Shown here one piece after another: positions 1-32,885 of a stretch of 64,000 nucleotides of DNA (positions are counted from its first letter, which is position 1; each line of letters starts with the position of its first letter). Source of the DNA: Nitrososphaerota archaeon. Lineage in GTDB: Archaea; Thermoproteota; Nitrososphaeria_A; Caldarchaeales; Calditenuaceae. The notes under the pieces are model-generated. The model saw only the letters and a list, made by a program, of their open reading frames with translations, was not told the DNA's origin and did not search any database. The stretch spans positions 1-64,000 of the forward strand of contig JBEPYO010000001.1 of the NCBI GenBank assembly GCA_041641295.1, written 5' to 3'. The translations under genes and the position numbers were made by a program.

Positions 1-1090
1 GGGCTACAGTGGTGGAGTACAGGTGACTGCGAGCCACAACCCGCCCGAGTGGAATGGATTCAAGCTGGTGCTGGGTGATGGCGAGACTGTATCAGAAGTG
101 CGCGGGATGAGCACACTCAAGAAAATCTTCTTCGAGGAGGTTAAGGCAGGCAGGCCCCGGAAAGCCGAGGCGGAGAAGGTAGACATAACCACGCATTACA
201 TCGAGAGGATTAAGGGTCTTGTAAAGCTTCGGAGGAGGGTTAGACTGCTTGTGGACTTCTCAAACGGAGCGGCAGGAATAATAGGTCCGAGGCTTTTGAG
301 AGAGATCGGATGCGATCTGACAGCCCTTAACGAGGAGCCTGACGGTCGTTTCCCAGCCCACCTGCCTGAGCCGACTCCCGAGACTCTAAAACAGCTCGCT
401 GAATCCATGAGGCGTGGGGTTGCGGACCTGGGGGCTGGACTCGACGGAGACGCCGACCGCTCCGTGTTCGTTGACGACAGGGGCCGGTTCCTTGAGGGCG
501 ACCTTACACTCACTGTCTTCCTCCACGGACTCGATAAAAGGGGTAGAATAGTCTATGACGTGAGCTGCAGTTCTGTGGTGGAGGAAGTAGGCTTGAGGCT
601 TGGATTCGAGCCGGTTCTCTGCAGGACAGGCCGCGCCTTCATGCTCAGCAAGGTCAGGGAGGTTGGGGCTGTCATAGGCGGTGAGAAGAGCAACCACATC
701 TACTTCTCAGAACTCCATGGATTTGACGACGGCCTATACGCCGTAGCTAAGATGGCTGAACTCGTCTCGAGGCTCGACCAGCCACTATCCAAGCTGGTGG
801 ACAGCCTCCCAAGATACTACGCTACAAGCATCAGAGTCATTGAGGTTCCTGACGAGCTGAAGCAGAGAGTTGTCGAGAAGGTTGCTGAGATTCTACGACC
901 CAAGGCCCAAAGAGTCATAGACATAGATGGCGTAAAGGCGTTCTTCAGGGATGGCTGGGTGCTTGTCAGACCATCCAATACAATGCCGCAGGTGAAGTAT
1001 ACTGCAGAGTCGACGACGCCAGACGGTCTTAACAAGCTTATCCTGATGGCGGAAGAGGCTATCAAAGAGGTGCTGAAACCGAGTGCCTGA
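1..1090 (+). CDS. Phosphomannomutase/phosphoglucomutase (5' end outside window)
   Basis: TASHNP phosphoserine loop, DGDADR metal loop, GEKSNH, RPSNT; frame is open to the window edge. Confidence 0.93.
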   Translation, partial: GYSGGVQVTASHNPPEWNGFKLVLGDGETVSEVRGMSTLKKIFFEEVKAGRPRKAEAEKVDITTHYIERIKGLVKLRRRVRLLVDFSNGAAGIIGPRLLREIGCDLTALNEEPDGRFPAHLPEPTPETLKQLAESMRRGVADLGAGLDGDADRSVFVDDRGRFLEGDLTLTVFLHGLDKRGRIVYDVSCSSVVEEVGLRLGFEPVLCRTGRAFMLSKVREVGAVIGGEKSNHIYFSELHGFDDGLYAVAKMAELVSRLDQPLSKLVDSLPRYYATSIRVIEVPDELKQRVVEKVAEILRPKAQRVIDIDGVKAFFRDGWVLVRPSNTMPQVKYTAESTTPDGLNKLILMAEEAIKEVLKPSA

Positions 1091-1772
1091 CTTCACAGTG
1101 CTGAGCGACTTCTTCAAGCAGCTTGAAATCTACGCTGTCAGGAACGGGTACCCGGGTGTCTTCCTCCTCTCGTTGGCTGGGAGCGCGATACCCTTCCTCC
1201 CCCTCCCCTATCTATTCATAGTAGTTATACTCTCGGGCGTCCTCGACCCTTTTCTCCTCGGACTTGTCTCGGGCCTTGGCGGAGCAATTGGAAAGATAAC
1301 CTCCTACCTACTTGGCAGGTTGGGGTATCGGTTTCTTGGACAGGAGAGGAGGCGGAGCATGGATGCACTCAACAGGCTGATTGGTAGGTATGGCGCGATA
1401 GGGGTCTTCATCTTCGCCCTTACGCCGCTCCCCGACGACGTCTACTACATACCCATCGGCATGACTAGATACTCCTTCGCAAAATTCATGCTTTATAGCG
1501 CGGCGGGTAAGATTCTCTTGGCAATCTTAGTCGCATATCTGGGACGGACCTACATGGAGGTTTTAGACATGCTTTTGAATGGAGGCCCCGGTGCAACCAT
1601 CATCTCGATAGTCGTGCTGGTGGTGATAACAATCATCATCTTGCGGGTGGACTGGGAGCTGCTTGCAAATCATCTTGAGAGAGGTGGGGTGAGGGCTGTT
1701 CTTGCGAATCTATCAGAGATACTTGCCCTGAGGCGGAACAAGGCTAGGTCCGGCGCCACGGCCCCAAAGTAG
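1083..1772 (+). CDS. DedA/VTT (YqaA-like) membrane protein
   Basis: Hydrophobic; GGAIGKITSYLLGR and FALTPLPDD motifs. Confidence 0.8.
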   Translation: MPDFTVLSDFFKQLEIYAVRNGYPGVFLLSLAGSAIPFLPLPYLFIVVILSGVLDPFLLGLVSGLGGAIGKITSYLLGRLGYRFLGQERRRSMDALNRLIGRYGAIGVFIFALTPLPDDVYYIPIGMTRYSFAKFMLYSAAGKILLAILVAYLGRTYMEVLDMLLNGGPGATIISIVVLVVITIIILRVDWELLANHLERGGVRAVLANLSEILALRRNKARSGATAPK

Positions 1773-1828
1773 ATAGACGCCCGTTTTCGCGGATAAGGTT
1801 TTAGACCCTGTCAGTCTATGAGGGGTTT

Positions 1829-3061
1829 GTGGGAGAGAAGAGGCTGCTTTCGGGCCGGCTGTACAGGGGCTACGAGATAGGAATAATCGATGAGAACTCT
1901 GCATACCTTGGTGTCGATAGGAGACTTCTAATGGAGAACGCGGGTGCTGCGGTGGCTAGGGTCGTGGCTGGGGAATCACCGGACCTCGCGTCGGCCAAAG
2001 TACTAGTCGTCGCCGGGCCTGGTAATAATGGTGGAGACGCCTTTGTTGCTGCGCGCCACTTGGCAGGCAGGGTTGCTAGACTGGCTGTTATCCTGCTGGC
2101 TAGGCCAGACCAGATAAGAACCTCCGAAGCGGCGGCCAACTGGGAGGCGATATGCAGAATGAGGCGGACAATCGACTATTATGTCGCGGACACGCTTGAG
2201 GGTCTCCAACGTATCCAGCAGCTCTTCAGAGACGCAGACATCATTATAGACGGCATATTCGGGACAGGTGTCAGGGGTGAGGTTAGAGAGCCCTACAGGA
2301 CGGCCATCAACCTCATCAACTCCTCAGGGGCTAGGGTCTTCTCCATAGACGTCCCATCAGGCATGGACCCGGACACGGGCAGATACACAGTAACAGTCAG
2401 GCCGAATATCACGATTACACTCCATGGAGCTAAACCATTCGTGACTCTCCAACCCGAACTGTCTGGCAAGACCTACGTCGAGCCGATCGGTGCACCGCCC
2501 GACGCAGAGGCCATAGCCGGCCCGGGCGACCTAGCCTACACCCTTACTAGGCTGAGACATCCTTCATCAGCGAGTGTGATGGGTGGGGGTGAGGAGGCTC
2601 AAGGAGCGGTTGACGCCTTGAGAATACTTGGCGTGGAGCCTAGAATGGGGTGGCTGGAAGAGGGGCTGGCTGTAAGTGTGGACGGCGTGTTGGCAGGCTA
2701 CGGCGCTGCTGAGGGTATGGAGGGTCTTAGAGCCGTAGTAAAGCCCCTCCAAGACCAAGCGGGGGTGGACGCGGCCAGCCTCTCGAAGAAGCTGGGGAAG
2801 CCTGTCTACCTCGTCGGCGGCTGGGACTCCATCTCAGACGGCGTTAGCCTGAAGTCCAACTGGATCGAGCCACCTGTCAGCTCAAAATATGTCCTTGGCG
2901 TTGTTACCTCACTCTCTGCAGCCTTCCTAGCGAGTGGTGTTGAGCCAATTTACGCGCTAGGCGCAGCCTGCTATGGGGCCCGGAGACCACTTAGGGGGAG
3001 AGGCCTTGAGGACAGGGAGGCATATTTGGATGGGCTCAGACAGCTCCTCTCTAGAAAGTAG
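1829..3061 (+). CDS. nnrE: NAD(P)H-hydrate epimerase (YjeF N-terminal) with degenerate C-terminal domain
   Basis: LMENAG, GPGNNGGD, DGIFGTG, DVPSG motifs. Confidence 0.88.
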   Translation: MGEKRLLSGRLYRGYEIGIIDENSAYLGVDRRLLMENAGAAVARVVAGESPDLASAKVLVVAGPGNNGGDAFVAARHLAGRVARLAVILLARPDQIRTSEAAANWEAICRMRRTIDYYVADTLEGLQRIQQLFRDADIIIDGIFGTGVRGEVREPYRTAINLINSSGARVFSIDVPSGMDPDTGRYTVTVRPNITITLHGAKPFVTLQPELSGKTYVEPIGAPPDAEAIAGPGDLAYTLTRLRHPSSASVMGGGEEAQGAVDALRILGVEPRMGWLEEGLAVSVDGVLAGYGAAEGMEGLRAVVKPLQDQAGVDAASLSKKLGKPVYLVGGWDSISDGVSLKSNWIEPPVSSKYVLGVVTSLSAAFLASGVEPIYALGAACYGARRPLRGRGLEDREAYLDGLRQLLSRK

Positions 3062-3064
3062 TGT

Positions 3065-3874
3065 TCAGCCATCCTTTAGGCTTTGGAGAATTCTGAGGAG
3101 ACCGTTGAAAGACTCAACTGTACCATCCTCCCTTTTCCCGCCCGGCGGAATATAATGTGTCTCGAGCGAGACAACGCCGTCAAATGTTCTCCCCAGCTCC
3201 CGGAGCTGCCCGAAATAGTCTATCATGCCGGCCCCAATGGGCTTAAACTTGAATGCACCATTCTCCACCGCAGCATCCTTCAGGTGGACGTGGACTATGT
3301 CTCCTTTCACATGCTCGTAGCCCTGTGGGTAGGGCTCCTCCCTCGCGAAGAAGGCATTCCCGGGGTCCCATAGCACTTTCAGCCACTGGCTCCTCATCTT
3401 ATCGAGGAGAATCCTAGTCTCACCCCCAGTCCCAACCATGCAGCTATACTCGTTCTCGACTGCGAGCACAACACCCTCGTCTGCAGCCAAGTCTAGGGCA
3501 GGGCTGAGAAGCTCAGCTATACGGTCGAGATGCCTGGCAAGCCCTCCTTGCCACCAGAAGGTGAATATCCTCGTGAATCTTAGGTCAAGCAGCTTTGTGA
3601 GCTCTATCGCCCTCTTAAGGGTCCTTAGGCTTTGGGCATGTCCTTCCCTGTCGTCGATATAGTTTTTGAAGGCGTAGGAGTCTATATTTGAGATCTCAAG
3701 CCCGTGCCTCTGGGCAATCTTCTTGAGTTCGAGGACTTCATTCTCGCTTAGTCCACAGACATTCTTGCCCCACACGTCGCGTATCTCGACGTGCGATGCT
3801 CCGAGGCGCTTCGCTATCTTGAACGCGTGGTCTGGGTCCTGCGATATCTCGTCAGAGATTATTCCGAGCTTCAT
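3065..3874 (-). CDS. Sugar phosphate isomerase/epimerase (xylose isomerase-like TIM barrel)
   Basis: VENE, WDPGN, HVHLKD, SLETH; ATG at 3874 overlaps the upstream stop. Confidence 0.85.
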   Translation of the reverse strand: MKLGIISDEISQDPDHAFKIAKRLGASHVEIRDVWGKNVCGLSENEVLELKKIAQRHGLEISNIDSYAFKNYIDDREGHAQSLRTLKRAIELTKLLDLRFTRIFTFWWQGGLARHLDRIAELLSPALDLAADEGVVLAVENEYSCMVGTGGETRILLDKMRSQWLKVLWDPGNAFFAREEPYPQGYEHVKGDIVHVHLKDAAVENGAFKFKPIGAGMIDYFGQLRELGRTFDGVVSLETHYIPPGGKREDGTVESFNGLLRILQSLKDG

Positions 3875-4644
3875 AACAGCCGCCTCAGATGGTCGCGATA
3901 GAGGGGAAGGATATAATCTCCGCTTGGTAGGTCTCTGTGCCAGAACCTCTCCCACTCCACGGAGATATAGCCAGTATATCCTGACCTTTTGAGGTCGGAG
4001 ACTATTTCTCCTAGGGGGACAACGCCTTCACCGGGAGGCGTAAAAACCCTCCTCCCCTCCCTTACCACAAAGTCCTTCAAGTGCACATGACATATCCGAC
4101 CTGCCAACAGCTTAAACGCCTCACCATGCGAACCACCGGCGAAGATTATGTTTGCCGGGTCGTAGAGGAATAAAGGCTCGTCCGAGAGGCGTAGCAGCTC
4201 CGCGATGTTAGAAGTATCCGCTAGATGGTCATGGGTCTCAATCAATATTTTGACACCATAGTCCCCCGCCATCCGGGCTAGCAGCTTGTAGCCATTAACT
4301 ACCGCCTCGGGGCTCTTCGGAAACTCGCCACCATAAACCCTTAAGCCCGATGCGCCAATCTCGGCAGCAAGTTTGACCAAATTATTCCCAAGAGAGAAGA
4401 CCGGACTTTTTTCACCACTATGTATTTCGGAGAGCCTGAGATAACTCGAGAGGACTGGGACTGGAAGGTTGTAGGACTTTAGGAGCTCCAGCTGTTGTCG
4501 CGGAATAGGCGAGACAGGCTTTAAGTGGACTCCGTCGTCAGCAACTCTGAGCTCGACTCCGTCAAAACCCATGGTGACCGCCCGCTCCAAAACCTCAGCC
4601 AAGCCTAGCTCAGGATAGGCCAGGCTCGTGAAACACAGCCTCAT
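3871..4644 (-). CDS. Sugar phosphate isomerase/epimerase (xylose isomerase-like TIM barrel)
   Basis: GFDGVEL, IETHD, YDPAN, HVHLKD, SVEWE. Confidence 0.85.
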   Translation of the reverse strand: MRLCFTSLAYPELGLAEVLERAVTMGFDGVELRVADDGVHLKPVSPIPRQQLELLKSYNLPVPVLSSYLRLSEIHSGEKSPVFSLGNNLVKLAAEIGASGLRVYGGEFPKSPEAVVNGYKLLARMAGDYGVKILIETHDHLADTSNIAELLRLSDEPLFLYDPANIIFAGGSHGEAFKLLAGRICHVHLKDFVVREGRRVFTPPGEGVVPLGEIVSDLKRSGYTGYISVEWERFWHRDLPSGDYILPLYRDHLRRLL

Positions 4645-5678
4645 AGAGGGCCATCACCCCGCTCGAGAGGTAGAGAAACCTTCACACCCCTCTCGGAGCT
4701 CAGATAAATAGCCTTGATAAGCTCGATGCTCTTAATACCCTCCCCACCACTAACTGGAAACTCTCTCCCACTCTTTACACACTCGGCGAAATCCGCTAGT
4801 AATGCCCTATGGAGGTCTCCAAACGCTATTCCGCTACCGTCGACCTGGGCCTCACCCTCATCCGTCCATACTCTAAGGGAGAGGTCATGTATCTCGGCGG
4901 ACCCCTTGGTGCCGAATACTCGTATCTTCCGATACTGCCTGTTGGTCGGCCGCATGTTCACTGTTGCGGAGATTGTTCCGAGAGCCCCGCTTCGGAACCT
5001 TATTGCTGCAGCGGCCACATCCTCAACCTCTATCGAGGGATGCGCTGCGTTGGATATGAATCCCGAAACCTCCTCAACATCTCCGCCGAGCCAGAGAACC
5101 AGGTCTAGCGTGTGTATTGCCTGGTTCATCAAGACCCCGCCACCCTCCGTCTCCCAATAACCCCTCCAACTCCGCGCGACCTCGTCCGACCTGTAATATT
5201 CGGCCTCACCCCTCCACCACTTAAGCTCTGCCTCAATCAGGTAGACCTTCCCCAGGCCGCCGTTTGAGACCAGCTCCTTAAGACGCCTCGCAGCCTCGAG
5301 ATACCTCTCCTGAAAAACAACCCCCAGTCTGAGCCCCATATCCTCTGCTGTCTTAGAGATTAGGCGCGCCCCCCTGAGCGTCGTGGCCATAGGCTTCTCT
5401 ACCAGAACATGTTTGCCGTGTTGGAGGGCGTAGAGTGTCTGAGGTGCGTGGAGGTATGAGGGAGTCGCAACCACCACGGCCTCCACCTCCGGGTCTTTAA
5501 CCACCTCGTCTATCGAGGTGTAAGCCTTGGCGCCAAACTGCTTTCCAACGAGCTCCGCCCTCTCCCTCACCTGATCTGCCACCGCTATGAGCCTGCAATT
5601 CTCAAGCATCGAGATGTTTCTCGCATGGACCTGTCCGATAACCCCAGCACCTAATACTGCAAAGCCAACCCTATCCAA
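4641..5678 (-). CDS. Gfo/Idh/MocA family oxidoreductase
   Basis: GAGVIG Rossmann motif, VEKPM, GGGVLMNQAIHTLD. Confidence 0.92.
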   Translation of the reverse strand: MDRVGFAVLGAGVIGQVHARNISMLENCRLIAVADQVRERAELVGKQFGAKAYTSIDEVVKDPEVEAVVVATPSYLHAPQTLYALQHGKHVLVEKPMATTLRGARLISKTAEDMGLRLGVVFQERYLEAARRLKELVSNGGLGKVYLIEAELKWWRGEAEYYRSDEVARSWRGYWETEGGGVLMNQAIHTLDLVLWLGGDVEEVSGFISNAAHPSIEVEDVAAAAIRFRSGALGTISATVNMRPTNRQYRKIRVFGTKGSAEIHDLSLRVWTDEGEAQVDGSGIAFGDLHRALLADFAECVKSGREFPVSGGEGIKSIELIKAIYLSSERGVKVSLPLERGDGPL

Positions 5679-5848
5679 GTCGTGAACAAGACACTAAAGG
5701 CCAGTGATAAATCCTCCCCCACCCACATCCTGTTTACAGCACAGCCACACAGAGTTGAGCCCACACCGATTATAGTTATGCATGTGTTTGTAGAATTCTG
5801 ACTAGGAGCCGTTAATCTTTATAAGCGGAATGGAAAGGACTAACTGGC

Positions 5849-6874
5849 ATGGAGTACGTACGTCTAGGATGGTCTGGGCTTAAAGTCTCAAGAATCTGTG
5901 TAGGCTGTATGTCGTTCGGCGATCCCAAACGTCAGCCAATGGGAGGTGGGGGATGGATTGTAGGTAAAGAGGAGGCATTCAAAGTGCTGAATAGGGCGTG
6001 GGACCTCGGGATAAACTTCTATGACACGGCAAACGTCTACTCCGCGGGCCTGTCAGAGGAGATCCTAGGCGAGTTCCTCCAAGGCAGGAGGGATGACGCA
6101 GTAGTGGCGACGAAGGTATTCTTCCCAATGAGCGACAAGCCTAACGACAGGGGGTTGTCGCGGAAACACATAATGAAACAGATTAAAGACTCTCTCCGCA
6201 GACTTAAGACTGACTATGTTGATCTCTACCAGACGCACAGGTGGGACCCGGAGACACCGATTGAAGAGACCCTCGCAACCCTCACAGACCTAGTTAGACA
6301 AGGCCTCGTAAGATACATCGGAGGATCAAGCATGTGGACGTGGCAGTTCGCAAAAGCCTTCTTCATCGCCGAGCTAAAGGGCTATGAGAAATTCACAAGC
6401 ACCCAGACGCCCTACAACCTCCTCTACAGGGAGGAGGAACGAGAAATGATCCCGTTCTGCAAGGCTCACAACATTGGATACATGGTTTATAGCCCAACCG
6501 CTGTTGGTGTCCTCTCGGGCAGATTCTACAGGGACGGAAAGCTCGTAGTAGGCCCTGATGCGCCTGACCGTCTCAAGCCCGAGACAGGCTTCTACGCCTA
6601 CAAGGCATACATAGAACCGCCGGAAAACGCGGAGATTGTGAGAAGAGTTATCGAGGTAGCTGAACGTAAGGGCGTAAAGCCATCCCAGATAGCCTTGGCT
6701 TGGCTCATCCACAAAGGCGTCACATCCATAATAATTGGTACTAGCAAAGTGGAGCACCTCGAAGAAGCGGTAGGTTCTCTTGAAATCAAGCTGACAGACG
6801 AGGAGATAAAATACTTGGAGGAGCCCTACAGGCCTAAACCAGTCATCCACATAACACAGCCAACCACCCGCTGA
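5849..6874 (+). CDS. Aldo/keto reductase
   Basis: DTANVY, VATKV, DYVDLYQTH, SQIALAW. Confidence 0.93.
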   Translation: MEYVRLGWSGLKVSRICVGCMSFGDPKRQPMGGGGWIVGKEEAFKVLNRAWDLGINFYDTANVYSAGLSEEILGEFLQGRRDDAVVATKVFFPMSDKPNDRGLSRKHIMKQIKDSLRRLKTDYVDLYQTHRWDPETPIEETLATLTDLVRQGLVRYIGGSSMWTWQFAKAFFIAELKGYEKFTSTQTPYNLLYREEEREMIPFCKAHNIGYMVYSPTAVGVLSGRFYRDGKLVVGPDAPDRLKPETGFYAYKAYIEPPENAEIVRRVIEVAERKGVKPSQIALAWLIHKGVTSIIIGTSKVEHLEEAVGSLEIKLTDEEIKYLEEPYRPKPVIHITQPTTR

Positions 6875-6920
6875 CAGCGGCGAGCGAAAAGATATATGAC
6901 CAGACATGCATTGAAGGTAC

Positions 6921-7199
6921 GTGCCGCATCACATTGAGCTCTTCATGGGAGGATGCCCGCTGTGTGAGGAGGTGCGCAACATGTTGGAGGTGGGCAAGTG
7001 TGCCGGCTGCAGGCTCGACATATATGACTTGGCAACAAGCTACGACTCTATCCGGGCCAAGATTCGCGAATACGGTATTAGATGTGTACCAACCATCGTG
7101 ATAGATGGAAAAATTAAGGTTGAAGGTCTTCCCCAATTCACGTTCATCTGCAGTGAAGAACTTTACCGTCAGCTAGAGGCGAACTACCGTTTTAGATAA
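6921..7199 (+). CDS. Small thioredoxin/glutaredoxin-like protein
   Basis: CPLC, VPTIVIDG; extra cysteines (CAGC, RC, IC). Confidence 0.75.
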   Translation: MPHHIELFMGGCPLCEEVRNMLEVGKCAGCRLDIYDLATSYDSIRAKIREYGIRCVPTIVIDGKIKVEGLPQFTFICSEELYRQLEANYRFR

Positions 7200-7229
7200 C
7201 ACGCCTAGCTTGGAGGTTTTACTGGAAAC

Positions 7230-8363
7230 CTAGCCCGGTACCCTCTGTACGGCAGTGCTCTTCGGCTCATATATGCAGGCTGGGTCAGTGGCTAGTGGGT
7301 CGCCGAATTCGGCATAGGCCCGCGCCCTAGAGCCCCCACATATCGACTTATACTCGCAGACACCACAGCGCCCGCTAAACATGCCTTGCCGCATTTTGAC
7401 GAGTAGGGGATGCATCCTGTATATCTCTACGAGGCTCCTCGCCTTGATGTTGCCGAGAGGATAGGGTAGGAAGCCTGAGGGATAAACGATCCCGTTATGG
7501 GAGACGAAAATTATTCCAAAGCCGTCTCTTGTCGGTAGTATGGTCTGGTCGGTGGCGCGGGTGGGATTACCCATGAGTGAGCGCAGCCCCTCAACCAACT
7601 CACGGTAGAGCGGCCCATCATATCCGTTTCCATTAGCTCTCTCCAGCTTGGCCCTCCTGAAGAATGGCGCCTCAACAGTGCGTAGCTGCAAGCCATACCT
7701 AGATACATCGACTAGGAACTGAACTACCTCCTCATACTCTTGAGGCGTTATGTCAAGTTCTCTCACGGCGCGTCCAGTAACAATTAGGAAGAAAACTTCC
7801 CAAATCCTGATCCCCAGATCAGTGATAAGTTTCACTATGCTTGGAAGTTCTCTGAGATTCTTCCTCCAGACGACCGTGTTGACCTGTACCAAAAGCCCGG
7901 CTTTAACAGCTCTCGATATTGCGTCTACCGTTGCTGCGAAGTTTCCGGGTATCTGCCTCATCTCCTCGTGTGTCTCGGCGGTAGCGCCGTCGAGGCTTAT
8001 GGATATGCTCTTCACACCCGCATCCTTGAGTTGCTTTAAAATCTCGCTCGAAAGGTTTGATGATACGGCCGGCGAGACAGCCACTGGCACACCATTCGAG
8101 CGCGCATGGTCGATCAGCTCAAAGAGGTCTCGCCGCATCAAGGGATCGCCACCGGTTATCACTAGCAGCGGTGTCGGGTTGCCGAAGGCAGCTACCTGTT
8201 CTATGAGGTTTTTCCCCTCACTTGTGGTCAGCTCGCCCGGCAGGGGCTTAAGTATAGCGTCTGCGCGACAGTGTTTACATGCTAGTGGACAGGCCTTGGT
8301 GGACTCCCAGAAGACAAGGAGAGGTGCTTCATGAAACCTGTTTATCCAGTCTTCAATCCTCAT
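7230..8363 (-). CDS. Radical SAM/SPASM protein, AhbD/NirJ-like (TIGR04053-like)
   Basis: CPLACKHC, TGGDPL, C-terminal CGVC..CGGSRARAY..DPAC; last gene of the hem operon. Confidence 0.85.
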   Translation of the reverse strand: MRIEDWINRFHEAPLLVFWESTKACPLACKHCRADAILKPLPGELTTSEGKNLIEQVAAFGNPTPLLVITGGDPLMRRDLFELIDHARSNGVPVAVSPAVSSNLSSEILKQLKDAGVKSISISLDGATAETHEEMRQIPGNFAATVDAISRAVKAGLLVQVNTVVWRKNLRELPSIVKLITDLGIRIWEVFFLIVTGRAVRELDITPQEYEEVVQFLVDVSRYGLQLRTVEAPFFRRAKLERANGNGYDGPLYRELVEGLRSLMGNPTRATDQTILPTRDGFGIIFVSHNGIVYPSGFLPYPLGNIKARSLVEIYRMHPLLVKMRQGMFSGRCGVCEYKSICGGSRARAYAEFGDPLATDPACIYEPKSTAVQRVPG

Positions 8364-8378
8364 ATATCGATATTCACC

Positions 8379-8867
8379 TCATGAGAATCTTAGTAGTGAG
8401 CCCAACCCTATTATGGCGAGCGTCAGATACAGTGTAGCCCACCCAACCACCAACATCTTCAACCTCTCCCGAGCATATTCAGGGCCATCCTCCATCTCGT
8501 AGAGCCTCCTCCCTAGGCTCGAGTGTAGGGGAAGCATTAGGAGCACCGCTGCGACTAAAATCATCTTGAGCAGCAAAATCGCGCCGAAGTGGGTCCCATA
8601 GAATTGGGAGCTTGTAAGCAACTGTACGCCAAACCCCCTCGTAAGAAGGAGGAGAGGCCCAGTTACAACGGCTATGTAGAGAGAATACCTCATAGGTCTC
8701 TGAATAGCCCTCCCAACAACTCCCAGCAGTTTCGTGGCCTCAACAGGAGGGTAGGTCTTCCTCAAACGCCTATTAACAATCACCGTGAAGAGTATTCCCC
8801 CAACCCATAGTGATGCGCTGACTATGTGGACCAGTTTAATAATTGTTAGGACCGTTAGGGTGCTCAA
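8379..8867 (-). CDS. CopD/HemJ-like 4-TM membrane protein
   Basis: KLVHIVSASLWVGG and LLLKMILV..LH; overlaps the hemE stop. Confidence 0.6.
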   Translation of the reverse strand: MSTLTVLTIIKLVHIVSASLWVGGILFTVIVNRRLRKTYPPVEATKLLGVVGRAIQRPMRYSLYIAVVTGPLLLLTRGFGVQLLTSSQFYGTHFGAILLLKMILVAAVLLMLPLHSSLGRRLYEMEDGPEYARERLKMLVVGWATLYLTLAIIGLGSLLRFS

Positions 8868-15600: not shown

Positions 15601-18600
15601 ATGAATTTGATTATTGATGAAAGATTTCTGAAGGAAAAAGGATATGATGTTTATAATGGAAACGAACTAATAATAAAAGGCGCACTGGAAGCCGGCATAC
15701 AAATAGCATCTGGCTATCCGGGTTCTCCGGTTGCTGAATTTTTCACATTCAGTGAGAAATACGCTGATTGGCTTATAGAAAATGGATTTTATTGGGAAGC
15801 TGCAAAAAACGAAGCCGAAGGGGCAGGTAGGCTTAACGGCGCAAGAATCATCAACAGGGATGCGATGGTTGTAATGAAGAGTGTTGGGTTAAATGTTGCT
15901 ATGGATCCTTTGGAAATTTCTAATTATCAAGCGGCTGCAACTATTGGATGGGGTGGAGTAGTTGTAGTTGGGGATGATCCACATGCTTCTAGCACACAGG
16001 TTGCTTCGAGCTCAAGATTTCTGCTAAAGAAGCTTAGGATACCAATTTTAGAGCCAAGCACCCCACAAGAAGTGAAAGATTACGTTGGAGAAGCATTGGA
16101 ATTATCACGGTCATCGCAGTTAATAGCCGGATGCATCATCCAATCATGGCAAGCTGATGGAATAGGGTCGGTCGAACTCTATAAAAACAAATACCCGCCT
16201 CGAGGTAAAGAAAGGATTGATATAAGCAAAATAAACGTAGAAAAGGAAGTAAGCCTCCCCCCAGTGACGGCAGAATTAGAAAGAGATATTGTCTTGAGGC
16301 GTCTTCAAGCTACAATACGTCATGCAAGAGCGAGGACTTTGAATAAAATACTTTATTCGAATGGTGGGAAAAGTAAAATTGGATTCGTCACCTCTGGATT
16401 GGCCTATTGCTATCTAGAACAAGCGTTGCATGAGCTTGGGGTGAGTTGGAGATTCCCTATTCTTAAATTGGGGCTAGTATACCCGCTTGATGAAATTCTG
16501 GTTAAAGATTTTGCGAGACAGGTTGAAAACATTTACGTGGTGGAGGAGAAAGAGCCTTTCATAGAGTCTGAGATCTCTTTGATTCTGAAGAATGCATATC
16601 AAAACAGAGAAATCGGATATGTTAATGTCTGGGGGAAAAGATTCCCTAACGATAGGGAGGGCTTCCCTGAGCATGGTGGCCTGAGTCCTACTGATGTGAT
16701 CAGGACAATAGGCGAAGAACTACTCATAGTGTTAGATAATCTGTCACATGAGGAGAGAAGGAGGATAAAAGAGGTGCTCAATCTTGTCGACGGCGCGAGC
16801 AAATACGTATTACAGGCGCCGAGGAGGATTCCTAGCTATTGTGCCGGCTGCCCGCATAGGGGAACTAATAGCGTTCTTAAATATCTGAGGAAGTATCCTG
16901 ATAACGATTTCCTCACAATACCAGACATTGGATGCTACTCGATGTCGGCTTTTACTCCTTGGAGGGAGGCCCACGCCTTCAACGCGATGGGTCGCGCAGG
17001 GGCTTCTGCATATTCGATGGGGCTGGTCGAGAATAAGAAAGTGCTTCTCATGGGTGATGGAACCTTCCTGCATGGCGGATACGTATCTGTCCAGGAAGCA
17101 ATAGACAAGAATCTAGACGCCATCATTGTAATATTATATAACCACTATGTTGCTATGACAGGTCATCAAAAAGTCCAGATCAGAGATGCAAAAGAGTTGG
17201 AGGAAAAAATCAAAGCCATGAGCAGAGGCAAGGATGTTTACATCAGGATAATAGATCCAAATGATAGGCGAGGCTACATCGAGGAGTTGAAAAAGCTTAT
17301 GAGTAAGAGAGGCACAGCCGTATTGATTTCTGATAAAGAATGCGGCATAACAAGGGAGAGGAGAAGGAGGGCTGAGAGGGCTGGAAGACCCAAGACGGAA
17401 TTCATAAACATAACTAACGAAGTCTGTGAGAACTGTAGGGAGTGCACCATTAACACGGGCTGCCCAGGGCTAACCCTTGTCAATACACCTTACGGCGAGA
17501 AAGTCGCGATAGACATGTCCGTATGTACCGAAGACGAGTATTGTGCGAAAATAGAGGCTTGCCCCTCATTCGAGAAGGTTAGAGTAGTCTATGCAGGAGG
17601 GAAACCGCAAGAGAGATTGCGTGATGCAGATCTGGATGACGTGCCGGAACCTGATGAAAAGGTGGAGTTTAACGATACTTACTCCATATACACCGGGGCT
17701 ATTGGTGGTATGGGTGGAGGGCTGCTCTCTGTCATTTTAGCCCGTGCAGGTGCGAAGAGCGGCTATAATATTGGTGGGTGGATAGGCCACGATAAGAAGG
17801 GTCTGGCTCAAAGAAATGGCGGGGTGTATAGTCATATAATGTTTACCAAAAACAATAATAGATTATCCCCTGTTATTGTATCTGGCAAGGCAGATCTGAT
17901 AATCGGGCTTGATAAGCTGGAAGGCTTAAGGGGGTTGAAGTATGCAAATGCTAATACGAGATTTGTTTCGAATCAAACAGAACTACCAACCATCCCTATG
18001 CTTGTTGGAGGTGAGGAGTATCCACACGATATAGACGATAAAATTAGAAGCAGGCTTGGTTTAGATAAATATTTTGGCCTACCAATTTCAGAGCTTGCTG
18101 AGTTCTACCTCGGAAGTAAACTATTCTCAAATATAGTCATGCTGGGTGTCTGCTACCAGCTAGGCTTATTACCACTGGACTCTAAAGATATTGAGGCCGC
18201 AATAATAGAGTCTGTTAAGTTTGAGAAAGAAAAGAATTTGAGAGCATTTAGGTTCGGGAGGAAGCTTGTCCATGACAAGAATTTCTTGGAGAGGTTGATG
18301 AATAACCCTGATTTCTTGAGAATATACCATGAAGACATCTGGTTTTCAAGAAAGTCGTTAGAAGAGGTGCTGTCTGAGAAAAAGTCGTATCTAAAGGATT
18401 ACTATTTGATAAAGTCGAGAGGTGTGAAAATTGCAGACATGTATGAGAAGCTAGTAAGAGATTTTATGATCGATAAAAAGTTGGATGAGGATACCCTGAA
18501 ACATCTTGCAATACGGGTTTACGACTTGATCAGGTGGGGCGGTATAGACTATGCTAAGAAATACATTGATCTGGTCTCCAAGGTTTATTATAAAGACAGG

Positions 18601-19242
18601 GAGGAAAAAGGATTTGCGGCTACCATAGCAGTCATAGAAAATTTGTACAAAGTAATGGCTATAAAGGATGAGTTGTGGGTTTCCGAGCTACTACTAAGTA
18701 GAGAGAAGCTTGAAAGAGACAGGATTAGATATAACGTGAACGTGGAGAGAGGTGATAGAATTGAATACATCCATTTGACAGAGCCTCAGATAGTTATCAG
18801 AGTGGGAAGACGTTTGGGGAAGATTATAAGTTTCTTGAAAAGACATTCGCCTAATTTGGCGAACAGAAAGGTTGAATTGGATGTCGAAAATGGCGTGCTC
18901 AAAATCAAATTTGTTATGAATACTAGAAACTGGCAGTTAAGAATTGTTAGAAGGATGAAGTTTCTCCGGAAATATTTGTTTAGACATAGAAAGGAAGAAG
19001 AATTCAGGGACTGGTACATTGAAAGAGTCATAAACTACTTCCTCGAAAACTCTGAACAGAATTATGGGCTCGCAGTAGAGTTTCTAAAGATGCCCCTTGG
19101 TTTAAATGTTCCGGGACGTGCTAAGGGAGTCACCGGCTTCAGGGAGGTCATATATCCTAAAATGGATCTGGCGAGAAGGACTTTTGAGAACCTGACTTCT
19201 TCCCACCTTATTTCCGAATTGGAGTCTTTAGGCAAGAAGTAA
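15601..19242 (+). CDS. Indolepyruvate:ferredoxin oxidoreductase family, fused alpha-beta polypeptide
   Basis: GYPGSP, MKSVGLNVA, CAGCPHR, GDG TPP motif, CENCREC/CP ferredoxin, GLAQRNG, AIKDE tail domain. Confidence 0.9.
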   Translation: MNLIIDERFLKEKGYDVYNGNELIIKGALEAGIQIASGYPGSPVAEFFTFSEKYADWLIENGFYWEAAKNEAEGAGRLNGARIINRDAMVVMKSVGLNVAMDPLEISNYQAAATIGWGGVVVVGDDPHASSTQVASSSRFLLKKLRIPILEPSTPQEVKDYVGEALELSRSSQLIAGCIIQSWQADGIGSVELYKNKYPPRGKERIDISKINVEKEVSLPPVTAELERDIVLRRLQATIRHARARTLNKILYSNGGKSKIGFVTSGLAYCYLEQALHELGVSWRFPILKLGLVYPLDEILVKDFARQVENIYVVEEKEPFIESEISLILKNAYQNREIGYVNVWGKRFPNDREGFPEHGGLSPTDVIRTIGEELLIVLDNLSHEERRRIKEVLNLVDGASKYVLQAPRRIPSYCAGCPHRGTNSVLKYLRKYPDNDFLTIPDIGCYSMSAFTPWREAHAFNAMGRAGASAYSMGLVENKKVLLMGDGTFLHGGYVSVQEAIDKNLDAIIVILYNHYVAMTGHQKVQIRDAKELEEKIKAMSRGKDVYIRIIDPNDRRGYIEELKKLMSKRGTAVLISDKECGITRERRRRAERAGRPKTEFINITNEVCENCRECTINTGCPGLTLVNTPYGEKVAIDMSVCTEDEYCAKIEACPSFEKVRVVYAGGKPQERLRDADLDDVPEPDEKVEFNDTYSIYTGAIGGMGGGLLSVILARAGAKSGYNIGGWIGHDKKGLAQRNGGVYSHIMFTKNNNRLSPVIVSGKADLIIGLDKLEGLRGLKYANANTRFVSNQTELPTIPMLVGGEEYPHDIDDKIRSRLGLDKYFGLPISELAEFYLGSKLFSNIVMLGVCYQLGLLPLDSKDIEAAIIESVKFEKEKNLRAFRFGRKLVHDKNFLERLMNNPDFLRIYHEDIWFSRKSLEEVLSEKKSYLKDYYLIKSRGVKIADMYEKLVRDFMIDKKLDEDTLKHLAIRVYDLIRWGGIDYAKKYIDLVSKVYYKDREEKGFAATIAVIENLYKVMAIKDELWVSELLLSREKLERDRIRYNVNVERGDRIEYIHLTEPQIVIRVGRRLGKIISFLKRHSPNLANRKVELDVENGVLKIKFVMNTRNWQLRIVRRMKFLRKYLFRHRKEEEFRDWYIERVINYFLENSEQNYGLAVEFLKMPLGLNVPGRAKGVTGFREVIYPKMDLARRTFENLTSSHLISELESLGKK

Positions 19243-28364: not shown

Positions 28365-28393
28365 TCGATAAGCCTCATCAAACCCAACCACCT

Positions 28394-28465
28394 AGCCCGG
28401 GAGGGGATTCGAACCCCTGTAAAGCGGCTCTGCAGGCCGCCGCCTAGCCGCTCGGCCACCCGGGC
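28394..28465 (-). tRNA. tRNA-Cys(GCA)
   Basis: GCCCGGG/CCCGGGC acceptor, GCGGC-CTGCAGA-GCCGC anticodon arm, U discriminator. Confidence 0.96.
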
Positions 28466-28570
28466 CCAAAAGAAACCAACCCGAAGCTAAGTTAAAGTCT
28501 TTACCCCCATCATTAGACAGTAAACACCGCAATAGTTTATTTCCTAGGCGCCCCCACACTACCACTTGGA

Positions 28571-28701
28571 GCGGGGGTGGCCGAGCCAGGTCAAAGGCGG
28601 CGGGCTTAAGATCTCGTGGAACGAGATAGGGAGACCCGCTCCCGTAGGCCAGAAATCAAATCGGGCGGAAGGGTTCGTGGGTTCGAATCCCACCCCCCGC
28701 A
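28571..28701 (+). tRNA. tRNA-Leu(TAA) with two introns (28611-28633 at 37/38; 28648-28670 in the variable arm)
   Basis: Removing both 23-nt inserts gives an 85-nt canonical archaeal tRNA-Leu with variable arm TCCCGTAGGGGTTC. Confidence 0.9.
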
Positions 28702-29565: not shown

Positions 29566-29863
29566 GGTTTGTAGCGGACAATTTTTGGATATAAGTTTTC
29601 GCGGATATTCATTGTTATTTCAGTGCAGAAGTGGTAGCTGCAGGCTCCAATGCTGTGATAGCGCATGGGATTACTTCATTTTTTCTCCATGAAGCTGCTA
29701 GTTTTATATGAGAGTGTCTACGAATATTGCTTCACATATTATCAGCGCGCTAAGAGAGAATGATGAAAGTGTAGCGACGACACGCAACTTATTATAACTC
29801 AAGAATACGTTGTCGCCGCGTGCTTATATCCATGCGATAGTTGACCCTTGAGGCAGAACTGCT

Positions 29864-30649
29864 GTGCAAGTGTCTTCGGAGGGAGTGGATATTGTGTATG
29901 ATGACGTGGGAAGGGGAGAGCCGGCCCTACTCTTTATGCCGGGCTGGTGTAGTAACCGAACTGTTTTCCAAGACTTGATCCCACGTTGTAGTCTGAACCG
30001 TCGTACACTTGCGCTCGATTGGCGTGGACATGGGGAGTCGGGAAAGCCTAAGGGAGATTTTGGTGTCGAGGCGCTGGTTTCGGATGCTTTAGCTGTAATA
30101 AAAGCCAGCGGGTCGCAACAGGTCGTCCCAGTCGCTCTTGCCCACAGTGGCTGGGTTGCCATAGAGTTGAGGCGTAGATTGGGGAAGCGTATTCCAAAAC
30201 TTGTTCTTGTCGACTGGCTTGTTCTCGAAGCACCTCAGCCTTTCTTGGAAGCCCTGAAGGGGATGCAGGATCCAGCTAAGTGGCGGCAGACAGTGGAGCA
30301 GGTCTTCTCTCTTTGGTTGCAGGGGGTAGATAATCAGCGGCTTATCGGCTTTGTTCGACAAGAGATGGGGTCGTATGGTTTTGACATGTGGGCGAGAGCG
30401 GCGAGGGAGATAAGTGCAGCCTATACAGAGGCGGGAAGCCCTCTCCAAGCCCTTTCCCGTTTGGACCCACCCGTGCCAGTATTGCATCTCTACGCGCAGC
30501 CACCTGACCCTAACTATTTGGCCGCTCAACAAAAATTTGCGGCTTCGCATCCATGGTTCAGTGTACGTAAGTTAGAGGCGCGCAGCCACTTTCCCATGTT
30601 CGAGGTGCCTGACCAGATGGCATCCGCTATTGAGCAATTTGTCGGCTAG
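29864..30649 (+). CDS. Alpha/beta-hydrolase-fold protein of the HOD/QDO/AqdC cofactor-independent dioxygenase family
   Basis: PGWC, DWRGHG, AHSGW, VDW, GSPL, HLYAQP, HPWF, SHFP align with remembered HOD motifs. Confidence 0.8.
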   Translation: MQVSSEGVDIVYDDVGRGEPALLFMPGWCSNRTVFQDLIPRCSLNRRTLALDWRGHGESGKPKGDFGVEALVSDALAVIKASGSQQVVPVALAHSGWVAIELRRRLGKRIPKLVLVDWLVLEAPQPFLEALKGMQDPAKWRQTVEQVFSLWLQGVDNQRLIGFVRQEMGSYGFDMWARAAREISAAYTEAGSPLQALSRLDPPVPVLHLYAQPPDPNYLAAQQKFAASHPWFSVRKLEARSHFPMFEVPDQMASAIEQFVG

Positions 30650-30682
30650 TAGAAAAATGAAGAGGCTGATTTCCATCGAGCT

Positions 30683-32104
30683 TTATTCCACGCAGCAGCT
30701 CATGCGTGTGAGAGGCCTGAGGAACGATTGGGCGGCAAGTTTTATGACCTCGGCATATGTCGGAAAAACATGTATTGTATCCACTATGTCCATCACTGTT
30801 CCGCCATGTTTCATATAGAGTGTTGCTTCAGTGATGAATTCTGCTGCGTTCGGTGAGAGTATGTGCATGCCCAGGACTCTTCCGTCGTTAGGACTTATGA
30901 CAAGCTTCGCCAGACCCCTTCCACCGCCTATTCTAGCCTTGGCCACGTTTTCTAATCCCACAATCCTACACGAGCATGCCCCGAACTTCTCCACCACCTC
31001 CCTTTCAGTCAGTCCTACCATGCCAACCTGTGGTTCTGTGAAAACCACCACTGGTACAGTTGAATAGTCTATTATGGAGGAGCCTTCTCTGACTATGTTG
31101 GATGCAGCGACGGCTCCCTCTCTAGCCGAGAGTGTTTCAAGCATCCATCGCTTGGAAACACAGTCGCCTGCAGCATAGATGCTGTGGTTGGTTGTGCGCA
31201 TAGTCTCGTCAACCTTTATGAAGCCGCGTCCATCTGTCTCAACCCCCGCCACATCTAGGTTTAATTTGTCTGTGTTTGGTACTCTGCCTGTAGCCAGTAG
31301 TAGTGCATCAAATTCTACGGACTTAGGGCCCTCACTGGTTAATACCGTGGCACAGGCGTGGCCGTCATGTTTTGAAAGTTCTACTATACTAGCCTTCGTG
31401 ATGATCTTCATCCCTTCACCCCTCAAAACCTCCGCAAGACTCTCAGATATATCGGGCTCCATCCCAGGGAGGATCCTGTCTAAGACCTCTACTAACGTGA
31501 CCTCACAGCCAATCCTCTGCATTGCCTGCCCTATCTCGAGTCCTACTGCTCCCCCACCCACCAGTAACAATCTCTCAGGCATGTCTTCTAAACTCCAAAT
31601 AGTATCTGTCGTGTAGTATGTTACCTCTTCAAGGCCTTTAATGTTTGGTATTGCTGGTCTCGAACCCGTCGCTATTAGGGCTTTATGGAAACCTATTTCC
31701 CTTGTGTTGTCGCCGGAAACTATTTGGAGGGTCCGTTTCGAGGTGAACGTAGCCCAGCCCTCGACAAACTCAACATTACCATACTGCTGTAGAACCATCT
31801 CGTATTTTTCACGCCTCATTTCCTCTACGAACCTGCGGAGTGATTTCATGAGTTTTCTGAAGTCTAGGTCTGCTCCCTTGGGACTGACCCCCTCGAACAA
31901 CACGCTATGTGATAGATGATAATGTTTGGCCGCCTCGATCAAGTATTTTGACGGGATGCATCCCACGTTGACGCATGTGCCACCCAAACTACCTGCCGAC
32001 ACCATCAAAATTTTCAGTTCACCGTTTGTGAGCTCACTCACTTTTATTGCAGCGGCGAAACCCGCCGCCCCCGCCCCAAGAATAACAAGGTCGTAACTAC
32101 TCAT
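30683..32104 (-). CDS. merA: Mercuric reductase (no N-terminal NmerA domain)
   Basis: GGTCVNVGCIPSK, HVFPT, C-terminal MSCC; ATG at 32104. Confidence 0.9.
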   Translation of the reverse strand: MSSYDLVILGAGAAGFAAAIKVSELTNGELKILMVSAGSLGGTCVNVGCIPSKYLIEAAKHYHLSHSVLFEGVSPKGADLDFRKLMKSLRRFVEEMRREKYEMVLQQYGNVEFVEGWATFTSKRTLQIVSGDNTREIGFHKALIATGSRPAIPNIKGLEEVTYYTTDTIWSLEDMPERLLLVGGGAVGLEIGQAMQRIGCEVTLVEVLDRILPGMEPDISESLAEVLRGEGMKIITKASIVELSKHDGHACATVLTSEGPKSVEFDALLLATGRVPNTDKLNLDVAGVETDGRGFIKVDETMRTTNHSIYAAGDCVSKRWMLETLSAREGAVAASNIVREGSSIIDYSTVPVVVFTEPQVGMVGLTEREVVEKFGACSCRIVGLENVAKARIGGGRGLAKLVISPNDGRVLGMHILSPNAAEFITEATLYMKHGGTVMDIVDTIHVFPTYAEVIKLAAQSFLRPLTRMSCCVE

Positions 32105-32348
32105 ATTCCCTTTGTAAAACATAAAGTATTTAAAACCTCTGGTAAAGATGCTTAACCTTTTTGAAATACTTGTAAAAATTTGCATTGGAAGAGTAACTTT
32201 GAGTTAACAACTCTTACAAGGTAGGGTTTTCCGCTAATGCTTTAACTCTTATCCTTCGGTTGGCTGTCTCTACAATCTACTTCTCAGGATATTTCCATAT
32301 TATAACGGAAGCGTTATATCCCACATATAATGACATTATGGTCGTAAG

Positions 32349-32885
32349 GTGATGAATGGCTTGACTGAGCTTAACGGCCTAAATCTGGAAAAGCTTGAGG
32401 AGCTTGTGAGAATAGTTGCTTCTCAGAAGGAGAAGGCTGAGGAACTCAATGTATGGAGGGCTAGAGTTAAGTGGACTGGAGGATTCCAAAGCAAGGCATA
32501 CGTGAGGAACCACACCTTCATCATAGATGAGCCTGCTGATCTAGCGGGTGTAGACATGGCCCCCAACGCTGTTGAATATGTGCTGTCGGCACTGGGTGCA
32601 TGCCTGACTGTAGGGTTTGTCCTAAATGCCACAAAGAGAAACGTCAAGATAGATGACCTAGAAATTAGCCTGGAGGGAAGGATAGACAATATACTTAATT
32701 TTCTGGGCTTGAGCGAGCAGGGTCATCCTGGATACCGTGAGATAAAGGCGAAACTATACGTTAGATCATCGGCCGATGCTAAAACCCTTGAAGAGATTTG
32801 GAAGAAGACGGTTGAGACATCTCCTGTGGGGAACACCCTCTCAAGAAACGTGAAGATAATTCCAGAACTATCTGTGGTGAGCTGA
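32349..32885 (+). CDS. OsmC-like protein (single Cys)
   Basis: DEPADLAG, PNAVEY..ALGACL; SPV in place of CPV. Confidence 0.8.
   Translation: MMNGLTELNGLNLEKLEELVRIVASQKEKAEELNVWRARVKWTGGFQSKAYVRNHTFIIDEPADLAGVDMAPNAVEYVLSALGACLTVGFVLNATKRNVKIDDLEISLEGRIDNILNFLGLSEQGHPGYREIKAKLYVRSSADAKTLEEIWKKTVETSPVGNTLSRNVKIIPELSVVS

Follow-up and report, generated by a model that had tools for sequence, protein, structure and literature searches.

An archaeal member of the HOD/QDO/AqdC family of cofactor-free dioxygenases and the question of its substrate

Why a thermophilic archaeon should carry a gene related to those of quinolone dioxygenases, and what compound the product might act upon, are the questions raised by an open reading frame (ORF) in a Nitrososphaerota archaeon of the order Caldarchaeales (assembly GCA_041641295.1). 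The window analysed here is a stretch of 64,000 nucleotides (contig JBEPYO010000001.1, positions 1 to 64,000 of the forward strand) at the start of a 1.55-Mb contig, which belongs to a genome of 1.56 Mb that is 94% complete. According to the ORF listing of the window, the ORF at 29864..30649 (+) starts with GTG and encodes 261 amino acids followed by a stop codon. A first-pass annotation made from the sequence had proposed a cofactor-free, carbon monoxide (CO)-releasing dioxygenase like HOD, QDO and AqdC. Cofactor-free dioxygenases with a hydrolase fold are a textbook curiosity, in that they activate O2 without metal or flavin. On balance, we favour the reading that the product of the ORF is a soluble alpha/beta-hydrolase-fold enzyme which works without cofactor or metal and belongs to the HOD/QDO/AqdC family, and that the gene is a stand-alone, laterally acquired one with a probable role in detoxification or scavenging.

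Family, fold and active site

The assignment to the family proposed by the first-pass annotation holds, both for the sequence and for the predicted fold. When the protein was compared with the PDB by phmmer, 134 distinct sequences matched at E <= 0.01, and the top nine were all AqdC, HOD or QDO (E 4.1e-61 to 4.1e-48), while the tenth, a 'putative hydrolase', followed at E 2.4e-8. The best match per family member was 4.1e-61 for AqdC (6ra2), 1.2e-59 for HOD (2wj3) and 4.1e-48 for QDO (3ibt). All the motifs on which the proposal had been built were located in the ORF, those outside Table 1 being VDW at residues 116-118, EMGSYGFDMWAR at 167-178, GSP at 191-193, HLYAQP at 208-213, HPWF at 229-232 and SHFP at 241-244; this pattern and the PDB matches together lie far above chance. 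An AlphaFold2 model computed from a 49-sequence alignment (mean predicted local distance difference test score 98.2, predicted TM-score 0.95) matched AqdC, HOD and QDO in a Foldseek search of the PDB with query TM-scores (TMq) of 0.93-0.96 and root-mean-square deviations (rmsd) of 1.4-1.8 A, and the next-best chains, esterases and dehalogenases, reached a TMq of at most 0.81 with an rmsd of at least 3.3 A. In a library of representatives at 50% identity, 107 clusters matched at E <= 1e-30, 577 at 1e-10 and 5364 at 0.001, so that the family of 3-hydroxy-4(1H)-quinolone 2,4-dioxygenases (HQD) is a small, distinct group within a large superfamily.

Two motifs, H-x(2)-W and HFP-x(4)-P, are said to have been put forward as marks of this family by Wullich and colleagues in 2020. 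The protein carries both, as HSGW at residues 94-97 and as HFPMFEVP at 242-249, the latter including the predicted catalytic histidine, and it is the sole ORF among those of at least 150 amino acids in the genome with HFP-x4-P and an upstream H-x2-W. An acidic residue, Asp117, stands at the end of strand beta6 (residues 113-116 in the model, immediately before it) and forms a His/Asp dyad with His242; the model has the helical cap and the overall fold of 6ra2, 2wj3 and 3ibt; and F127, L131, W151, M168, W176 and I183, which line the hydrophobic cavity, are identical to HOD. The protein thus truly belongs to the family of cofactor-free dioxygenases, and its dyad and aromatic pocket are intact.

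Some source annotations make the protein an ordinary serine esterase or hydrolase instead, which is very improbable. Its Pfam matches are indeed limited to Abhydrolase_6 and Abhydrolase_1, and homologues are annotated as 'alpha/beta hydrolase' or 'pimeloyl-ACP methyl ester carboxylesterase', much as the first-pass annotation had expected of an automatic pipeline. That expectation failed for the metagenome-assembled genome (MAG) records archaeon HR04 and bacterium HR11, in which close homologues are already named '1H-3-hydroxy-4-oxoquinaldine 2,4-dioxygenase'; the family is well studied, and the HOD label is already attached to close archaeal homologues in public records. All 15 NCBIfam matches fall far under their cut-offs (the best with 49.4 bits against a cut-off of 390), and the gap in TMq between esterases and dioxygenases likewise argues against an esterase. 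Most directly, where serine hydrolases have Ser, Cys or Asp in an Sm-x-Nu-x-Sm elbow, the protein has Ala93. We aligned 118 of 119 close homologues (P0002-P0120; one sequence of 237 amino acids was dropped for length), along with 64 of 150 representatives (235-345 amino acids; the remainder were fragments), HOD (from pAL1), AqdC2 (from pRLCBG43) and a Pantoea plasmid homologue. Among these 118 close homologues, 73 have Ser at the elbow and 45 have Ala, and an exchange of this kind within so similar a set of proteins cannot be reconciled with a serine nucleophile. The nucleophile is dispensable in this family (partial texts of PMC10548524 and PMC3961685), and a natural alanine at the elbow, which the first-pass annotation had picked out, is shared with AqdC (PMC10548524, partial text).

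Since an alanine elbow excludes covalent catalysis but is by itself no proof of oxygenation, it could be argued that the His/Asp pair serves an oxygen-independent reaction, as in some alpha/beta-fold enzymes that lack the serine, such as decarboxylases, lyases or isomerases. Tomato MKS1, a decarboxylase without a canonical triad, offers a precedent (PMC10548524, partial text). We regard this as unlikely, because the matches are specific to dioxygenases, other proteins falling behind by about 40 orders of magnitude in E-value and by 0.15 in TM-score, and because the residues that contact O2 and substrate are conserved.

The dyad itself is as foreseen, with His242 and Asp117 aligning with HOD His251 and Asp126, and it is almost invariant among the close homologues (Table 1). 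Of 19 ligand contacts in HOD, taken from the partial text of PMC10548524, 11 are identical in the archaeal protein, compared with 15 in AqdC2 and 13 in the QDO-like protein P0170. In the benzo-ring pocket, which that source validates with xenon, six of eight residues are identical to HOD and the other two are conservative (L143M, L156V). Changed relative to HOD are H38S, H100L, S101A, G103S, S188A and G189A; HOD positions 38 and 100 vary within the clade of characterised enzymes too, where P0170 has Gln and Cys. The pocket suggests a quinolone-like bicyclic substrate. By homology, a bicyclic N-heteroaromatic 3-hydroxy-4-one would bind between the core and the helical cap, with its NH bonded to the carbonyl of Trp28 and its benzo ring in a pocket of H94, F127, L131, M134, V147, W151, W176 and I183. 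In HOD the corresponding residue is Trp36, whose backbone holds the NH of the substrate and makes up the oxyanion hole or O2 site (partial texts of PMC3961685 and PMC10548524). His242, tuned by Asp117, would then take the proton of the 3-hydroxyl group, O2 held in the oxyanion hole beside Ala93 would react with the substrate anion at C2 and C4, and the resulting endoperoxide would collapse to a product of the N-acyl-anthranilate type and CO.

The gene is under purifying selection, as judged from ratios of nonsynonymous to synonymous substitution rates (dN/dS) of about 0.09 and about 0.13 against two orthologues of the same genus. Homologues of 262 amino acids cover 99-100% of the protein, which is consistent with the long GTG start, and one database gene call of 251 amino acids leaves the exact start unsettled.

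Table 1. Coordinates in the window of the gene, its predicted functional residues and its putative upstream elements; residues are numbered from the GTG codon, and the fourth column refers to the 118 close homologues.
Feature	Coordinates	Strand	Close homologues	Basis
HQD-family cofactor-free dioxygenase homologue, whole ORF	29864..30649	+		PDB sequence matches, AlphaFold model, Foldseek; dN/dS
PGWC loop, residues 26-29; Trp28 = HOD Trp36	29939..29950	+	Trp28: Trp 118/118	motif location and alignment
'Nucleophilic elbow' AHSGW, residues 93-97; Ala93 at the Ser-nucleophile position; His94 = HOD His102; carries H-x2-W	30140..30154	+	His94: His 118/118	alignment
Asp117 = HOD Asp126, acidic dyad partner, directly after strand beta6	30212..30214	+	Asp 112, Glu 6	alignment and model
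Helical cap domain, residues ~125-198, five helices	30236..30457	+		model secondary structure
Cap hydrophobic pocket residues F127, L131, M134, V147, W151, M168, W176, I183	within 30236..30457	+		alignment to HOD contacts (PMC10548524, partial text)
Trp151 = HOD Trp160			Trp 118/118	alignment
Trp176 = HOD Trp185			Trp 118/118	alignment
HFPMFEVP, residues 242-249; His242 = HOD His251, predicted catalytic base; carries HFP-x4-P	30587..30610	+	His242: His 118/118	alignment
Putative promoter and ribosome-binding elements: TATA-like CTTATAT ~35 nt and GAGG ~11 nt upstream of GTG	29823..29853	+		sequence inspection, tentative

A separate clade and its nearest known relatives

The first-pass annotation had also called for alignment and tree building with HOD, QDO and AqdC. 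Here family membership stood, whereas placement inside the characterised clade did not. The evidence is two quick trees made with IQ-TREE, one of 86 rows rooted on two unrelated hydrolases, whose long branches leave the root uncertain, and one of 73 rows that leaves out L042 (a short match) and L054 (an internal stop). In both, HOD, AqdC2 and P0170 (nearest to QDO 3ibt, E 7.7e-58) fall into one clade, of 13 rows with a Shimodaira-Hasegawa-like approximate likelihood ratio test (SH-aLRT) support of 99 in the larger tree and of 9 rows with a support of 100 in the smaller one. The query belongs to an archaeal clade (6 rows, support 100, in the 86-row tree; 10 rows, support 99, in the 73-row tree) which, by record titles, consists of Thermoproteota/Nitrososphaerota MAGs, Ca. 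Caldarchaeum, Ca. Nitrosocaldus and archaeon HR04. It adjoins Ignavibacteriales and one deltaproteobacterial sequence; Thermoflexus, HR11, Methylococcus and an alphaproteobacterium stand further out, followed by Binatia, Acidobacteriota and Rokuibacteriota. The archaeal clade is thus nested among bacterial sequences, with moderate support at the nesting nodes (89-93) and a root that is not fixed.

Of 2857 candidates in a word-indexed search, 1575 proteins matched at E <= 0.001. The top 120 of these are 64-100% identical to the query and most are without a product name; the few named by organism include Nitrososphaerota, Caldarchaeum, Nitrosocaldus, Thermoflexus, Methylococcus, Ignavibacteriales and Alphaproteobacteria. 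The query clade is separate, very conserved (64-87% identity) and common to hot-spring archaea and several bacterial phyla. Its placement outside the characterised enzymes, along with the accessory nature of the gene in a thermophile, is what is modestly new here.

A further archaeal type, divergent but HQD-like, with 55-57% identity to the query, was seen in four other Caldarchaeales genomes (L050-L053, in G038, G024, G030 and G003). It has Ala at the elbow and Asp and Thr at query positions 30 and 92, and it branches elsewhere in the 73-row tree. We nevertheless make no claim of two independent archaeal acquisitions, as an approximately unbiased (AU) test fails to reject one common clade for the full set of 14 archaeal rows, which was chosen after inspection of the tree (p-AU 0.38). 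As a separate observation, one genome holds an extra copy, 81% identical, with a TAA stop at codon 19 (L054, G040:C6).

Among the known enzymes, the best PDB match of the query is AqdC, the 2,4-dioxygenase of Mycobacteroides abscessus that acts on the Pseudomonas quinolone signal (PQS) (6RA2/6RA3; TMq up to 0.96, rmsd 1.4 A), which has the His/Asp dyad, the helical cap and a natural alanine elbow in common with it. AqdC2 of Rhodococcus erythropolis BG43 aligns with 98% of the query at 36.2% identity. The AqdC/AqdC2 clade is nonetheless not that of the query; Ser and Leu in the query stand in place of the His that AqdC2 retains at HOD positions 38 and 100, and aqdC2 is clustered with aqdR, a carboxylesterase-family gene and a flavin adenine dinucleotide (FAD)-dependent oxidoreductase gene, whereas the archaeal gene stands alone. 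HOD (MeqE), the 1H-3-hydroxy-4-oxoquinaldine 2,4-dioxygenase of Arthrobacter sp. Rue61a (pAL1; 2WJ3), is 38.8% identical to the query with a TMq of 0.94-0.95; it has Ser101 at the position of the archaeal Ala, and its gene follows that of an FAD monooxygenase in the quinaldine pathway cluster. QDO, the 1H-3-hydroxy-4-oxoquinoline 2,4-dioxygenase (3IBT; TMq 0.95), is, of the three, furthest from the query in sequence, and its relative P0170 sits in the characterised clade, apart from the query. Much closer are the orthologues of Thermoflexus hugenholtzii, Methylococcus sp. ANG ('alpha/beta hydrolase'), HR04 and HR11, which are 67-74% identical over 93-100% of the query and share its clade and its pocket residues, including R32, L92 and E182. 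Those of Thermoflexus, Methylococcus and HR11 are bacterial and have a Ser elbow, unlike the query. A literature search found no characterisation of any of the four.

R32, L92, A179, E182 and A211 are fixed in the query clade and differ in the characterised clade; in the close homologues the clade state is found in 117 (R32), 101 (L92), 114 (E182) and all 118 (A179) sequences. It is possible, if rather doubtful, that the clade acts on a conserved, widespread substrate that is not an alkylquinolone, for example another 3-hydroxy-4-one heterocycle or a damaged endogenous metabolite, and that it is a separate orthologous group with a housekeeping or damage-control role relying on the same cofactor-free, base-catalysed dioxygenation. 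The size of the clade, its unusual conservation across archaea and bacteria, the differences of R32, L92, E182 and A179 from the characterised clade, and a survey of gene neighbourhoods (see below) that, Nitrosocaldus synteny apart, turned up no conserved functional neighbour would all fit such a role. However, with the benzo-ring pocket and the NH-binding Trp kept, a quinolone-like bicyclic substrate is the simplest guess, and patchy presence within one genus speaks more for an accessory than for a housekeeping function. Moreover, R32 and E182 are the majority state in the rest of the family too (R in 38 and E in 35 of 53 other representatives), and therefore may be a structural pair rather than substrate determinants.

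An accessory gene without pathway partners

The distribution of the gene speaks for the favoured reading of an accessory, laterally acquired enzyme. The protein was detected in 8 of 41 genomes including its own, namely in 3 of 7 other genomes of the same genus, 0 of 11 of other genera of the family and 4 of 9 of the sister family, where non-detection does not equal absence because many of the genomes are incomplete. One sister genome (G005) has syntenic flanks, with a nucleotide identity of 75-86%, and lacks the gene in the slot; between the K+ channel gene and the oxidoreductase gene, the counterpart of window positions 29570-30680 (L081, G005:C52 ~563-8407) holds instead about 7.8 kb with eight ORFs and a single Pfam match (DUF350). 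In another genome (G007) an 87%-identical orthologue adjoins HisRS. The GC content of the gene is ordinary (59th percentile); its codon-usage distance lies at the 96th percentile of 495 genes of similar size, and the composition of its product is unlike that of the host proteome, with the summed fraction of Ile, Val, Tyr, Trp, Arg, Glu and Leu (IVYWREL) at the 6.5th and (E+K)/(Q+H) at the 1.7th percentile of 964 ORFs. A search for flanking direct repeats that might mark the boundary of a mobile element gave none that convinced. Patchy presence, the variable slot, atypical codon usage and nesting among bacterial sequences together support the lateral acquisition that the first-pass annotation had suspected, and the gene is most likely an accessory one acquired from bacteria. 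The strain-variable slot lies about 1 kb beyond two tRNA genes.

The gene is not a binning contaminant, since it resides on the main 1.55-Mb contig and its flanks are common to genomes of the same genus. That the host is archaeal is confirmed by the nearest loci, which belong to Caldarchaeales/Nitrososphaerota MAGs. Host DNA is present in three hot-spring metagenome runs from two studies, which may include the source sample, and from this presence we take the host to be of hot-spring origin; no RNA run is listed as containing it. The IVYWREL fraction of the proteome, 0.451, predicts growth at about 88 C by a regression on growth temperature that is reportedly that of Zeldovich and colleagues (2007). 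Three COX1 genes above the Pfam cut-off indicate that O2 is available to the host, and four genes for molybdenum (Mo)-hydroxylase large subunits are present in the genome, one of them just past the end of the window (G000:C1:65439-66134). It is conceivable, as a tentative extension of the idea of a distinct orthologous group, that the group has spread laterally through hot-spring archaea and many bacterial phyla as a stand-alone enzyme of 'oxygenolytic detoxification', not for an alkylquinolone of the Pseudomonas type but for another widespread heteroaromatic compound, be it an environmental toxin or a damaged metabolite, and that CO would be released in hosts equipped with several genes of the Mo-hydroxylase/CO-dehydrogenase family.

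In the window, the ORF is surrounded by genes for a Bmp-type binding protein, an amidohydrolase, tRNA-Cys, an intron-bearing tRNA, a K+ channel (divergent), a pyridine-nucleotide disulfide oxidoreductase (convergent), OsmC and a MetE-like protein. No aromatic-catabolic gene is found among these neighbours and no hydroxylase, amidase or regulator of quinolone catabolism links the gene to a pathway, in agreement with the first-pass annotation, which had found none adjacent. To look beyond the window, we clustered 406 neighbouring ORFs from 112 related loci and searched them with Pfam; the query clade has no recurrent functional partner among them. Gene context was accordingly set aside as a clue to the substrate, its recurrences being confined to synteny within Nitrosocaldus (class-III aminotransferase, enolase, a helix-turn-helix protein and aconitase, with the aminotransferase at -1 in 6 loci), to five loci where a DUF4149 membrane protein recurs beside a homologue 56-59% identical to the query, and to a distant soil-actinobacterial clade, 44-50% identical, in which alone an FAD monooxygenase (FAD_binding_3), an AMP-binding ligase and ADI-like neighbours recur. 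The arrangement at these actinobacterial loci (L014, L024, L026, L022 and others) is reminiscent of the aqd and meq clusters, in which a monooxygenase is paired with a dioxygenase. At a cyanobacterial locus (L013) and an unclassified bacterial one (L041), the homologue stands among SnoaL-like cyclases and an amine oxidase, with a GMC oxidoreductase in L013, surroundings that look like a secondary-metabolite cluster.

Several points weigh against a quinolone-directed dioxygenase. The query lies outside the clade of all characterised enzymes, in a separate clade (SH-aLRT 98-99 in both trees), and five HOD ligand contacts are changed (H38S, H100L, G103S, S188A and G189A); for these two reasons we can only infer that the substrate is a quinolone. 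Neither a 3-hydroxy-quinolone-forming hydroxylase nor an amidase for the product is present among the window neighbours, and a search of the genome for FAD_binding_3 gave partial or N-terminal matches and no full-length monooxygenase. The literature search turned up no measured activity for any member of the query clade and, covering neither Wullich et al. 2020 nor the supplements of PMC10548524, no study of an archaeal family member. Some members of the clade come from Nitrosocaldus. These organisms are autotrophic ammonia oxidisers, in which aromatic catabolism is unlikely, and we know of no alkylquinolone producers from such hot springs. The separate clade, the changed polar contacts and the lack of pathway partners allow room for a different substrate. 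Our preferred guess is a role in detoxification or scavenging, in which the product probably acts on an exogenous heteroaromatic compound and does not supply a catabolic pathway.

Significance and further observations

Family candidates reportedly come from all domains of life (Wullich and colleagues, 2020), and the natural substrate of a clade as large and strongly conserved as this one would extend knowledge of the family past quinolone catabolism. Cofactor-free dioxygenases are also candidate quorum-quenching agents against Pseudomonas aeruginosa, and the known PQS-cleaving enzymes are heat-labile, with catalytic half-lives at 37 C of 0.49 h for AqdC and 0.22 h for the enzyme of Streptomyces bingchenggensis (PMC9687290, partial text). 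A homologue from a hot-spring archaeon could offer a naturally robust scaffold, thermostability of the protein being plausible from its host.

Some further features of the neighbourhood deserve mention. An OsmC-like gene lies 1.7-5 kb from the homologue in the window (32349-32885, +) and at two Nitrosocaldus-clade loci (L006, 10318-10848; L008, 616-1146), a proximity that is possibly due to chance. The disulfide oxidoreductase convergent to the ORF (500 amino acids, 30683-32185, -) is separated from it by a 33-nt gap and ends in ...MSCCVE, a C-terminal Cys pair that we take to be reminiscent of mercuric reductase. Rfam places the second tRNA, of 131 nt, at 28571-28701 (+) with 46.3 bits, divergent to tRNA-Cys (28393-28466, -); ARAGORN does not report it, presumably because of an intron. 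In every one of the five same-genus genomes searched, its two halves have 4-7 matches, which are 69-100% identical. Ten kb upstream of the ORF, a protein of 1213 amino acids (15601-19239, +) fuses POR, thiamine pyrophosphate (TPP) and DUF6537 regions.

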